A program made the position numbers and the translations under genes. From a virus (Duplodnaviria; Heunggongvirae; Uroviricota; Caudoviricetes), in the IMG/VR virus record IMGVR_UViG_2579778622_000009: 4,023 nt of DNA, one strand, 5' to 3'. Numbering within the stretch: position 1 is the first letter of the stretch; the number at the start of each line of letters is the position of its first letter. The notes beneath the pieces are model-generated. The model worked only from the letters and a program-made list of their open reading frames with translations, made no database searches and was not told where the DNA came from. This document shows, piece by piece, positions 1-4,023 of this stretch.

Positions 1-122
1 CACCACTTTGTCTAATTCGTCAGATTCTGACCAGACGGTTCAGGCTGTACGCTTACGGATATACCGCCAGCCTGGTTGATAAAAAATGGTTGCGACTGGC
101 AGCAAGGAGGAATCATGGCTGA
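1..122 (+). CDS. ninE: NinE-family protein, C-terminal fragment (start lies upstream of the window)
   Basis: Frame 3 is open from the window edge to TGA at 120-122 and translates ...[39 protein letters not shown]. The basic C-terminus and the position immediately upstream of ybcO fit the ninE slot of lambdoid nin regions. It is absent from the ORF track because no start codon lies inside the window. Identity is from recalled similarity, not a search. Confidence 0.55.
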   Translation, partial: PLCLIRQILTRRFRLYAYGYTASLVDKKWLRLAARRNHG

Positions 123-405
123 TTTGAGAAAAGCAGCGCGTGGTCGGGAATGCCAGGTAAGAATCCCTGGCGTATGTAATGGCAATCCTGAAACGTCTGT
201 ACTGGCACATATCCGGCTGGCTGGATTGTGCGGTACCGGTATCAAACCGCCAGACCTGATTGCCACCATTGCATGTTCTGCCTGTCACGACGAGATCGAC
301 CGTCGCACGCATTTTGTTGACGCTGGATATGCAAAAGAATGCGCGCTGGAAGGTATGGCGAGAACGCAGGTTATCTGGCTGAAAGAGGGGGTAATTAAGG
401 CGTGA
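116..405 (+). CDS. ybcO: DUF1364-family protein, putative zinc-binding nuclease (YbcO-like), 96 aa
   Basis: ATG at 116 is preceded by a strong Shine-Dalgarno AAGGAGG at 104-110. The product [29 protein letters not shown]...[13 protein letters not shown] is Cys/His-rich and matches DLP12 YbcO as recalled. The ORF-track start at 76 has no RBS and would overlap ninE. Stop TGA at 403-405. Confidence 0.85.
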
Positions 406-764
406 ATACCTACAATATCACATTACCCTGGCCGCCGAGCAATAATCGCTATTACCGCCATAATCGCGGGCGCACGCACATCAGCGCAGAGGGGCAGGCA
501 TACCGCGAAAACGTCGCCCGAATCATTAAAAACGCAATGCTGGATATCGGCCTGGCTATGCCTGTGAAAATCCGCATTGAGTGTCACATGCCGGATCGCC
601 GTCGCCGTGACCTGGATAATCTACAAAAGGCCGCTTTTGACGCACTCACCAAAGCAGGTTTCTGGCTGGATGATGCTCAGGTCGTTGATTACCGCGTTGT
701 GAAGATGCCGGTTGTCAAAGGTGGAAAGCTGGAACTGACCATCACTGAACAGGGAGATGAATGA
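402..764 (+). CDS. rusA: RusA-family Holliday junction resolvase, 120 aa
   Basis: GTG start at 402 overlaps the ybcO stop (GTGA), with a purine-rich GAGGGGG at about 385-391 upstream. The product has the RusA hallmarks: N-terminal [11 protein letters not shown], and acidic residues D70, D72 (RRDLDNL) and D91 (WLDDAQV) at the known catalytic positions. Confidence 0.9.
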
Positions 765-901
765 TGTTTGAGTTTTATATGGCAGAACTTCTTCGCCACC
801 GCTGGATGCGCCTGCGCTTATATCGTTTCCCCGGTTCTGTTTTGACCGATTACCGAATACTGAAGAATTACGCCAAAACACTGACAGGAGCAGGAGTATG
901 A
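761..901 (+). CDS. ylcG: Small basic protein YlcG-like, 46 aa (not in the supplied ORF track)
   Basis: ATG at 761 overlaps the rusA stop (ATGA). Hand translation gives [46 protein letters not shown] with stop TGA at 899-901. Its position between rusA and Q matches the DLP12 ylcG slot. Confidence 0.6.
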
Positions 902-986
902 AGTCAGAGATAACAATCAACTAATACTGTTTTGTTGATTTTTGCTTGTAATTGGCGTTCTGGTCTGAGTTTTGTGGAGTAAGTTG

Positions 987-1370
987 ATGCGTGATATTCA
1001 GATGGTTCTTGAGCGTTGGGGAGCGTGGGCGGCTAATAATCATGAAGATGTGACCTGGTCGTCCATTGCCGCCGGTTTTAAGGGATTAATTCCTTCAAAA
1101 GTAAAATCTCGCCCACAATGTTGTGACGATGACGCGATGATCATTTGCGGGTGCATGGCCCGTCTGAAAAAGAACAACAGCGATTTGCATGATTTATTAG
1201 TAGATTATTATGTAGTCGGTATGACATTCATGTCACTGGCAGGTAAGCATTGCTGCTCTGATGGTTATATCGGGAAAAGGTTACAGAAGGCTGAGGGCAT
1301 AATTGAAGGGATGTTAATGGCATTAGATATCCGGTTAGAGATGGATATCGTTGTTAATAACTCTAATTAA
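987..1370 (+). CDS. quuD: Q-like late-gene transcription antiterminator (QuuD-like), 127 aa
   Basis: ATG at 987 is preceded by GGAG at 976-979; the ORF-track GTG at 972 is probably an over-extension. The product [24 protein letters not shown]... carries Cys clusters ([15 protein letters not shown]) consistent with a zinc-binding Q family. It sits in the canonical spot upstream of the late promoter region and lysis genes. Stop TAA at 1368-1370. Confidence 0.85.
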
Positions 1371-1390
1371 TATGCCAATTGTTTACTAAA

Positions 1391-1421
1391 AATTATTAAA
1401 AATGGGGCGTTGAGACGCCCC
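1391..1421 (-). terminator. Rho-independent terminator on - strand, likely ending the nmpC transcript
   Basis: Perfect 6-bp GC stem GGGGCG (1404-1409) / CGCCCC (1416-1421) with loop TTGAGA. Read on the - strand it is followed by ATTTTTAATAATTTTT (complement of 1391-1403). On the + strand it is followed by CAAAAATAAA, so it is orientation-specific for the - strand. Confidence 0.5.
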
Positions 1422-1440
1422 CAAAAATAAAGGGTAATAT
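1410..1440 (+). promoter_or_regulatory. Candidate Q-dependent late promoter (pR'-like): -35-like TTGAGA at 1410-1415, -10-like TAATAT at 1435-1440
   Basis: Found by eye about 40-70 bp downstream of the Q stop, where lambdoid pR' normally lies. The 19-bp spacer is suboptimal. A -10-like TTTATATAG at about 1451-1460 in the presumed initial transcribed region could act as a sigma-dependent pause element. Boxes are inferred, not verified. Confidence 0.25.
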
Positions 1441-1509
1441 ATAACAGAAGGTTTATATAGTTAGAAGCAAGGTTGTGCTTCTAAAGGAAGTGGCTTGAGG
1501 GAGCCACTT

Positions 1510-1550
1510 ATATGTTGGGGAGGCAAAGCCTCCCGCAACATATCTTTTTC
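1510..1550 (+). terminator. Rho-independent terminator on + strand (tR'-like), ending the short late leader transcript
   Basis: Stem 1510-1524 (ATATGTTGGGGAGGC), loop AAA, stem 1528-1543 (GCCTCCCGCAACATAT) with one bulged G, followed directly by CTTTTTC at 1544-1550. The U-tract is present only in the + orientation. Confidence 0.5.
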
Positions 1551-1559
1551 GTAATCAGA

Positions 1560-2642
1560 TTAGAACTGATACACCAGACCTACAGCGACGATGTCGTCGG
1601 TATCAATACCAGCTGTTTTGGTAAACTTACTATCGTCAATTAAGTTGATTTTGTAATCAACAAAAGTGGACATGTTTTTATTAAAGTAGTAAGTAGCACC
1701 GACATCGACATACTTGACTAAGTCTCGGTCACCATGAACACCAAGGTCTTTACCTTTTGACTGAAGGTAAGCAACAGATGGTCGCAGACCGAAGTCAAAC
1801 TGATATTGTGCTACTGCTTCAAAGTTTTGTGCTTTGTTTGCAATATGGTTATTACCAAAAACGGTCATATTCTGAGTTTCAGAATATGTGGTAGCCAGAT
1901 AGATATTGTTCGCATCATATTTCAGGCCTGCAGCCCATACTTCCGCATTTTTGCCGGAGGCATTGAATTTGCTCTTACCATAGGCGACCTGACCGTCAGT
2001 GCGATCTGATTTAGCATAGGTTGCACCCACGCCGAATCCTTCATACTCATAAGTAGTGGAGAAACCGAAACCATCACCATTGGCTTCAGTTACGTCAGTG
2101 CGGTCATTTTTACCCTGATACTGAGCAGCAAAGTTCAGGCCATCGACCAGACCAAAGAAGTCGTTGTTACGATAGGTTGCAACACCAGTGGTGCGACCAG
2201 TCATGAACACATCTGTTTGGGTCCAGGTATCGCCACCGAATTCTGGCAGAACGTCAGTCCACGCACCGATGTCGTATGCTACACCGTAGTTACGGCCGTA
2301 ATCGATTGAGCCGTAGTCACCGAATTTCAGGCCTGCAAATGCAAGACGGGTTTTGTCTTTGGAGGAACCTTGAGATTCAGCGCGGTTGCCTTTGAATTCA
2401 TATTCCCACTGACCGAAACCAGTCAGTTGATCGTTGATTTGGGTTTCACCTTTGAAGCCAAGACGGGCATAAGTAGTATCACCATCATCTGCATCGTTAG
2501 AGGAAAAGTAGTGCTTGGCATTAACTTTCCCGTACAGATCCAGCTTGTTACTGTCTTTATTATAAATTTCAGCTGCCTGAGCAGACATCGCCATCAGTAC
2601 TGATGCAGCTACAGCAGAAATTGCCACTGTTAATTTTTTCAT
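1560..2642 (-). CDS. nmpC: Outer-membrane general porin, OmpC/OmpF/PhoE family (NmpC/Lc-like), 360 aa precursor, apparently intact
   Basis: N-terminal signal peptide [23 protein letters not shown] followed by the mature start [17 protein letters not shown], typical of enterobacterial porins. Aromatic/Gly-rich beta-barrel composition. C-terminal ...VGLVYQF with terminal Phe, the beta-barrel assembly signature. Start codon complement CAT at 2640-2642, stop complement TTA at 1560-1562. Confidence 0.92.
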
Positions 2643-2760
2643 CGTGAGCCCTTTTTTTTGAACTATTATTAAAAAATGATGTCACTGCGCGATAAATATT
2701 CATCTAATCAATGTGATTATTTCAAGATGTAAGTTTTAGTTTCTCATTTAATTTGTGAAG
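2643..2760 (-). promoter_or_regulatory. nmpC translation-initiation region and probable promoter/5'UTR (exact boxes uncertain)
   Basis: On the - strand an A-tract plus AAGGG lies just upstream of the ATG (complement of 2643-2660). A candidate -35 TTGAAA is at the complement of 2720-2725. The region is extremely AT-rich. Transcription start not determinable from sequence alone. Confidence 0.25.
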
Positions 2761-3230
2761 TAGATCTCTATTTTTATCTGAACTTTTTCTATCGAAACCT
2801 ATTTATGGCTCTTATTTGAACAAAAATAAACCTATTAGCTAATTTATATTAATGGCTGTTATTTATGGGGGTTCTATAATTCGGTGGTTTAATTTAAATC
2901 AACTAAAAATAACGCCGGAAATTATTTATTGGTTATTTGTTGAGGTTTTCTTATATATTTGTGGTGGTGTTTTGAACACTCGGTAGCATTCTCATAAATA
3001 TCATTCAGTGGTTTACGTACGTAAAAAATTGGTTATGCTGTTAAGAGTGGTTACTTCGTCACACAGCTTAAACCCGCCGTCGAGCTGGTTTTTCCATTTT
3101 TTGAGTCTCGATATTAGCTGATAACTCAATACCTGAGTTATTCACTGACTCCGAGTCTGTTACGTTTCTGCTTTTTTGCGATACGTTGTATTCCCTCAAT
3201 TTACACCCGCTTTGTCTGCGAGGTGGGGTT

Positions 3231-3446
3231 ATGAAATCCATGGATAAGTTAACAACGGGTGTCGCCTATGGCACCTCAGCAGGTAGTGCCGGTTACTGGT
3301 TTTTACAGCTGCTCGATAAAGTCACGCCCTCACAGTGGGCAGCAATAGGTGTGCTGGGTAGCCTGGTATTTGGCCTGCTGACGTACCTGACAAACCTTTA
3401 TTTCAAGATTAAAGAAGATAAGCGCAAGGCTGCGAGAGGTGAATAA
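3231..3446 (+). CDS. essD: Class II pinholin (phage 21 S-like) with dual-start motif, 71 aa
   Basis: RBS GAGGTGGGG at 3220-3228 and ATG at 3231. The product [71 protein letters not shown] has two transmembrane segments and a basic C-terminus. Met1-Lys-Ser-Met4 gives two in-frame starts (3231 and 3240), as in holin/antiholin pairs. The ORF-track start at 3186 is probably an over-extension. Confidence 0.9.
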
Positions 3447-3943
3447 TGCCTCCATCATTACGAAAAGCCGTTGCTGCTGCTATTGGTGGCGGAGCAATTG
3501 CTATAGCATCAGTGTTAATCACTGGCCCAAGTGGTAACGATGGTCTGGAAGGTGTCAGCTACATACCATACAAAGATATTGTTGGTGTATGGACTGTATG
3601 TCACGGGCATACAGGAAAAGACATCATGCTCGGTAAAACGTATACCAAAGCAGAATGCAAAGCCCTCCTGAATAAAGACCTTGCCACGGTCGCCAGACAA
3701 ATTAACCCGTACATAAAAGTTGATATACCGGAAACAACGCGCGGCGCTCTTTACTCGTTCGTTTACAACGTGGGCGCTGGCAATTTCAGAACATCGACGC
3801 TTCTTCGCAAAATAAACCAGGGCGATATCAAAGGCGCATGTGATCAGCTACGTCGCTGGACATATGCTGGCGGTAAGCAATGGAAAGGTCTCATGACTCG
3901 TCGTGAGATTGAGCGTGAAATCTGTTTGTGGGGTCAGCAATGA
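3446..3943 (+). CDS. rrrD: SAR endolysin (T4-lysozyme-type muramidase with N-terminal signal-arrest-release domain), 165 aa
   Basis: ATG at 3446 overlaps the pinholin stop (TAATG). The N-terminus [20 protein letters not shown] is a Gly/Ala-rich weakly hydrophobic segment typical of SAR domains. Glu35, Asp44 and Thr50 ([18 protein letters not shown]) sit at the catalytic-triad positions of T4-lysozyme-like enzymes. Stop TGA at 3941-3943. Confidence 0.9.
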
Positions 3944-4023
3944 ACAGAGTAACCGCGATTATCTCCGCTCTGGTTATCTGCATCATCGTCTGCCTGTCAT
4001 GGGCTGTTAATCATTACCGTGAT
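3940..4023 (+). CDS. rzpD: Rz-like inner-membrane spanin (i-spanin), N-terminal fragment continuing past the window end
   Basis: ATG at 3940 overlaps the endolysin stop (ATGA). Translation [28 protein letters not shown] is an N-terminal transmembrane anchor, as expected for Rz, and lies directly after the endolysin. Confidence 0.7.

Follow-up and report, generated by a model that had tools for sequence, protein, structure and literature searches.

The lysis genes and their surroundings

The DNA analysed here, referred to below as the window, is a stretch of 4,023 nt from a caudoviricete virus record (IMGVR_UViG_2579778622_000009). Its 3′ part carries three genes of a phage lysis cassette, S, R and the beginning of Rz, all read on the plus strand. 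A gene for the late antiterminator Q lies upstream, and a porin gene in the opposite orientation, about 1.1 kb in length, separates Q from S. The features that bear on the argument are as follows.

972..1370, plus strand: late-gene antiterminator Q (quuD), matching PF06530 (E = 1e-53); the start annotated in Escherichia coli ATCC 8739 corresponds to window position 987
1560-2642, minus strand: intact OmpC/NmpC-type porin of 360 aa with a signal peptide, PF00267
3220..3229, plus strand: tandem Shine-Dalgarno sequences GAGGT and GGGGT for the two S starts, read directly from the sequence
3231..3446, plus strand: S, annotated as essD in ATCC 8739 (100% DNA identity); the complete ORF of 71 aa starts with MKSM (MKSMDK) and corresponds to the antipinholin form, S71
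3240..3446, plus strand: pinholin form, S68, from the second in-frame ATG at codon 4 (Met4, nt 3240)
3252..3311, plus strand: first transmembrane domain (TMD1) of S, weakly hydrophobic, about residues 8-27 (about 7-27 in the hydropathy scans), 63% Gly/Ala/Ser/Thr
3336..3401, plus strand: second transmembrane domain (TMD2) of S, about residues 36-57 (to about 58 in Kyte-Doolittle and Hessa-type scans), the pore-lining helix by analogy with S21
3446..3943, plus strand: R, the SAR endolysin known as RrrD/YbcS in DLP12, a GH24-type true lysozyme of 165 aa
3467..3526, plus strand: SAR domain of R, residues 8-27, with Gly or Ala at 11 of 20 positions (7 Ala, 4 Gly)
3548..3595, plus strand: codons of the catalytic triad, E35 at 3548-3550, D44 at 3575-3577 and T50 at 3593-3595
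3940..4023, plus strand: beginning of the i-spanin Rz (rzpD), whose N-terminus includes a signal anchor of strong hydrophobicity; the gene runs off the window end

The other ORFs of the window are ybcO (PF07102), rusA (PF05866) and a ylcG-type ORF of 46 aa. Between positions 56 and 4023, the window is 100% identical by megablast to a chromosomal locus of E. coli ATCC 8739, C and the B lineage, and its contents, ybcO-rusA-ylcG-quuD-porin-essD-rrrD-rzpD, stand in the DLP12-type order. The PGAP annotation of ATCC 8739 reads ybcN-ninE-ybcO-rusA-ylcG-quuD-ompC-essD-rrrD-rzpD-iss; emrE, ybcK, ybcL and ybcM lie upstream of these genes, and a truncated pseudogene of a tail gene lies downstream. By this identity and gene order, the locus is the DLP12-type prophage of E. 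coli, a context that the preliminary description of the DNA had not recognised.

The locus is widespread. At least 80% of the window is present in 2,013 of 5,426 complete E. coli genomes (megablast). The block also occurs in sequenced lambdoid phages, with 92-97% identity across the whole window and up to 99.6% in the lysis cassette. The identical S protein is encoded in 41 phage records at ≥99% identity, including ev243 and cdtI. Phage 434B has a homologous porin gene that is interrupted by an IS5 insertion after codon 346, whereas the porin of the window is intact.

The first 56 nt of the window are of a different origin. They are not part of ninE and match, at 100%, a multi-copy sequence found in chromosomes and plasmids, with a median of 2 and up to 22 copies per E. 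coli genome. In strain JB2, this sequence adjoins IS66-family tnpA/tnpB genes, and on the reverse complement the mobile-element end terminates in GTAAGCG, which we take to be a typical inverted-repeat end of the IS66 family. No exact match to the junction (window 31-74) was found among species-representative genomes. From the sequence of this junction, an insertion sequence appears to have truncated ninE, with replacement of its 5′ part, and such a truncation fits a decaying prophage.

The S gene product

The S reading frame has a dual-start motif, M1-K2-S3-M4, which is the same as that of the phage 21 holin S21 and has the tandem Shine-Dalgarno sequences 5′ of it. A dual start is also annotated in phage 21 and phage 434B, and in the 434B record the ribosome-binding sites for the S71 and S68 products are annotated at positions homologous to 3220..3229 of the window. 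The translated protein matches the Pfam family PF04971, "Bacteriophage P21 holin S", with E = 2e-35 and 121 bits against a cut-off of 26.

Hydropathy scans of the whole 71 aa indicated two hydrophobic segments and no third hydrophobic stretch, and the C-terminus after TMD2 is a charged tail, which together make up the two-segment layout of a class II holin. Rough Hessa-type insertion-energy sums were +6.5 kcal/mol for TMD1 and +1.0 kcal/mol for TMD2; these sums are crude, unweighted by position and based on approximate scale values rather than on a dedicated topology predictor, so that only their ranking is reliable. The ranking places TMD1 as the less hydrophobic of the two helices.

These results bear on several statements of the preliminary description. 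The six-frame ORF list returned the two ORFs exactly where it had placed them (3231-3446 and 3446-3943), and the second Met at codon 4 bears out the dual-start MKSM that it had assigned to the holin. It had further described the holin as a protein with two transmembrane domains, the first Gly/Ala-rich. The scans agree with this, but that description is incomplete, as it omitted the exit of TMD1 from the membrane on activation, as known for S21. The two topologies that it had named as contrary evidence, a third transmembrane domain in S and a stable, strongly hydrophobic anchor in R, were both absent in the hydropathy scans.

The R gene product

SAR domains have been characterized as weakly hydrophobic N-terminal stretches of some 20 residues, with much Gly, Ala, Ser and Thr and with positive charge before them (PMC9239132). 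In R, residues 8-27 are composed to 65% of Gly, Ala, Ser and Thr and are preceded by R6-K7. The insertion sum of this segment was marginal (+0.8), compared with -2.5 for the signal anchor of Rz on the same approximate scale, which again serves for ranking only. The spacing of the three catalytic residues fits the E-X8-D-X5-T lysozyme motif as defined in the literature (PMC9239132), and the protein matches PF00959 with E = 1.3e-45 (Pfam).

A search of PDB sequences returned two nearly identical full-length proteins. R is identical at 164 of 165 residues both to 4ZPU ("Lysozyme RrrD"; E = 7e-112) and to 3HDE ("Lysozyme", R of phage 21; E = 3e-111), and the truncated chain of 3HDF covers residues 27-165 of R. 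The sole difference from 4ZPU is at residue 159 (I vs V). Judged by the E-values for PF04971, PF00959, 3HDE and 4ZPU, the family matches of S and R are far beyond chance.

Comparison with phage 21

The complete genome OL657228 was used as the phage 21 reference. Its lysis region is annotated with the antiholin S21-71, the class II holin S21-68, a SAR endolysin, an i-spanin and an o-spanin, in the same gene order and with the same 1-nt and 4-nt overlaps as in the window cassette. R differs from R21 by one residue in 165 (99% identity). The change is M98T, so that residues 1-97, including the SAR domain and the triad, are unchanged. S is identical to S21 at 61 of 71 residues (86%), with the same MKSM dual start and two transmembrane domains; the ten substitutions are I7L, S8T, I11V, W27L, Q30K, S32T, L47F, F49L, R61K and R64K. 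Residues G40, S44 and G48 of TMD2, which we take to be the glycine-zipper-like face of the pinhole, are kept.

The preliminary description had read the region as a cassette of pinholin and SAR endolysin of the phage 21 type, and these alignments to S and R of phage 21, with the match to PF04971, support that reading. They are equally in line with its more specific statements on the endolysin, since the Gly/Ala-rich N-terminal segment is found at residues 8-27 and residues 35, 44 and 50 are indeed E, D and T.

At the codon level, 33 synonymous and 10 non-synonymous differences from phage 21 were counted in S, and 8 and 1 in R. The synonymous excess in both genes indicates that both frames have been under purifying selection. 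The DNA identity is unevenly distributed. Codons 1-63 of S are about 75% identical to phage 21, whereas from nt 3426 onward the identity is about 98-100%; the R gene has 9 differences in 498 nt (about 98% identity). This shift in DNA identity points to a mosaic recombination joint near 3425/3426, close to the 3′ end of S. Phage 434B has the reverse pattern, its identity falling from 98% in S to 96% in R and 92% in Rz. Upstream of S, phage 21 has pR′, a Q-binding element (QBE), a terminator and two tRNA genes. The window has no meaningful similarity to phage 21 in this region (41% in a largely forced alignment) and no tRNA, and the opposed porin gene is found there instead.

Three of the ten substitutions in S deserve attention. 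W27L falls within YWFLQW, an aromatic patch, and L47F/F49L is a swap inside the pore-forming helix. The aromatic patch of S21 has been reported to stabilise pores. With ten substitutions, including these three, the trigger timing of this S allele could differ from that of S21. We think it rather unlikely, although conceivable, that the allele differs in trigger time or in the stability of its pores, perhaps as an adjustment to sub-lethal use in a host-domesticated DLP12. If true, this would be allele-level variation on a known mechanism, and that reading does not extend to a new system.

Other known systems

The closest known system is that of DLP12 itself, essD-rrrD(ybcS)-rzpD/rzoD, which is the same locus as window 56-4023 in DNA and for which an RrrD structure exists (PDB 4ZPU). 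Structures are likewise available for R21 of phage 21 (PDB 3HDE and 3HDF). A more distant relative is Lyz of phage P1 (PDB 1XJT and 1XJU), whose holin is LydA; it belongs to the same lysozyme family but is distant in sequence (R vs 1XJT, E = 2.5e-8). An N-terminal SAR domain, Sec-dependent export and release on depolarisation are common to both, these properties being assigned to the window R by homology. The two enzymes differ in their activation. In P1 Lyz, a disulfide cages the catalytic Cys and disulfide isomerisation activates the enzyme, whereas in R21 the SAR helix refolds into the enzyme body.

The lambda system (S105/S107-R-Rz/Rz1) has in common with the window cassette the gene order, the dual-start logic of holin and antiholin, the spanins and Q-dependent late expression. 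It differs in both main components: lambda S, a holin of class I, has three transmembrane domains and opens holes on the micron scale, and lambda R, which lacks a SAR domain, is soluble in the cytoplasm (PMC9636201).

Proposed mechanism

We conclude that S-R-Rz is almost certainly a pinholin and SAR-endolysin lysis cassette of the phage 21/DLP12 type. The data obtained here are sequence identity, motifs, gene order and hydrophobicity pattern, and each functional step described below is carried over from near identity to proteins that have been studied.

The single S frame would give two products, the pinholin S68 and the antipinholin S71. Both would build up in the inner membrane, each with its two helices inserted, and the extra N-terminal Lys2 of S71 would hold its TMD1 in the membrane and thereby delay exit. 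In the meantime, R would leave the cytoplasm through the Sec machinery of the host, and its SAR helix would keep it, inactively folded, attached to the inner membrane. Once S68 reaches a critical level, TMD1 would exit the bilayer and TMD2 would build heptameric pinholes of about 2 nm, with collapse of the proton motive force. Upon depolarisation, the SAR helix of R would leave the membrane and R would refold to an active lysozyme that cuts peptidoglycan. The spanins Rz and Rz1, the latter encoded beyond the window, would then break the outer membrane.

This scheme follows published work on phage 21. The accumulation of S68 and S71, the charge effect of S71, the exit of TMD1 and the heptamers of about 2 nm have been described (PMC9636201; bioRxiv 10.1101/2021.04.20.440580); in S21, the inner membrane is crossed by a flip of TMD1, and TMD2 is both required and enough for conductive pores (bioRxiv 10.1101/2021.04.20.440580). 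S21-68 makes nanometre-scale holes that depolarise the membrane and are impassable to folded proteins (PMC9636201, PMC7312051), and by homology to S21-68 we infer that the window S would form such pinholes. Sec export, tethering and release on depolarisation by the pinholin constitute the published phage 21 mechanism (PMC9636201, PMC9239132, PMC7312051), in agreement with the preliminary description, and they are assigned to the window R because its residues 1-97 are identical to those of R21. Release by a pinholin is regarded as the definitive test of a SAR endolysin, and SAR endolysins expressed without a pinholin are released slowly and spontaneously, (PMC9239132), which is the "slow lysis" hallmark named in the preliminary description.

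Alternative readings and possible domestication

Two other readings were considered and rejected. The cassette could be a canonical pair of the lambda type, in which S opens micron-scale holes and a folded cytoplasmic R escapes through them. Although the S-R-Rz order and the dual-start motif are common to lambda (PMC9636201), S has two hydrophobic segments, not three, and is a member of PF04971, the family of the P21 holin. The N-terminal Gly/Ala-rich hydrophobic segment of R is that of R21, the prototype SAR endolysin, and S21-68 has been reported not to complement lambda S (PMC9636201). On the two-segment S and the R21-like SAR segment, we regard a lambda-type pair as practically ruled out. 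The genes could also be a silent relic, with ORFs intact by chance and neither expressed nor functional, and the decayed surroundings of the prophage, with an IS end and pseudogenes nearby, would be in keeping with this. However, the synonymous excess in the comparison with phage 21 is strong in both genes, the catalytic and topological motifs are all intact, and transcription and lytic activity have been published for the K-12 orthologues (PMC7918800). Given purifying selection and intact motifs, a dead relic is very improbable.

A third reading retains the mechanism proposed above and differs in its use: the cassette may have become a host-domesticated module of a defective prophage, weakly expressed and serving the turnover of peptidoglycan, the control of vesicles or the formation of biofilm. 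The DLP12 setting speaks for it, with the flanking genes emrE, ybcK, ybcL and ybcM and the truncated tail-gene pseudogene, as do the multi-copy mobile-element end that adjoins ninE and the retention of most of the window in more than a third of the complete E. coli genomes. The DLP12 lysis module has been found to be conserved and transcribed and to give a lytic phenotype when supplied on a plasmid, its deletion leads to more outer-membrane vesicles, and the authors of that study interpret the module as domesticated for peptidoglycan turnover (PMC7918800). On the other hand, the same S and a closely related R occur in sequenced lambdoid phages, which argues that true lysis competence is kept. 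Domestication and lysis competence are mutually compatible. Because the cassette sits in a DLP12-type prophage, its routine role may be in cell-wall turnover, vesicles or biofilm rather than in virion release, and we consider domestication of the module evenly balanced between likely and unlikely.

Whichever use prevails, the pinholin and SAR-endolysin cassette is, as far as its sequence tells, a textbook member of the S21/R21 family that is already known, with nothing new in it. The phage 21 proteins on which this pathway was worked out share 86% (S) and 99% (R) of their residues with those of the window; for the DLP12 copy, a structure has been solved and genetic work has been published. The value of the analysis lies mainly in the correct annotation of what is an ordinary case, present in some 2,000 of the 5,426 complete E. 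coli genomes.

Gene overlaps and expression signals

The S stop TAA and the R start ATG have one base in common (TAATG, 3444-3448), and the R stop TGA and the Rz start ATG overlap by four bases (ATGA, 3940-3943). Both overlaps had been pointed out in the preliminary description and are present in the sequence, and they make translational coupling through S-R-Rz plausible. Each downstream start is also preceded by a G-rich stretch resembling a Shine-Dalgarno sequence, GAGAGGTG for R and GGGG for Rz, so that independent initiation of R and Rz is equally possible. The start of Rz is 100% identical in DNA to Rz of phage 21 and is annotated elsewhere as rzpD or i-spanin.

No late promoter was located in the window, where the sigma-70 scan gave fewer sites than in shuffled controls, and the same scan gave no sigma-70 sites upstream of S. 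A tRNA scan and an Rfam scan of the window (E up to 1) returned no match. quuD is presumed to be the upstream regulator of the lysis operon. The region from the porin start towards S (2650-3000) is very AT-rich and presumably contains the promoter region of the porin gene; the scan reported no sigma-70 consensus site in it.

Predicted RNA structures were noted at two places. Four strong predicted hairpins cluster within 1404-1545, in the 190 nt that separate quuD from the porin 3′ end, and the predicted fold of nt 1371-1562 has a minimum free energy (MFE) of -66.9 kcal/mol. One of them, a GC-rich hairpin at 1404-1421, was flagged as terminator-like on the minus strand, and a further one, at about 1511-1543, has TCTTTTT after it on the plus strand. 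Judging from the predicted folds, these hairpins may act as bidirectional terminators that the Q-modified polymerase must read through. The second place is just 5′ of the dual start of S, where nt 3205-3270 have a predicted fold with an MFE of -16.9 kcal/mol. Within window 3205-3230, ACCCGCUUUG is predicted to pair with CGAGGUGGG of the S Shine-Dalgarno region in a 9-bp hairpin, and this hairpin could influence the ratio of S71 to S68.
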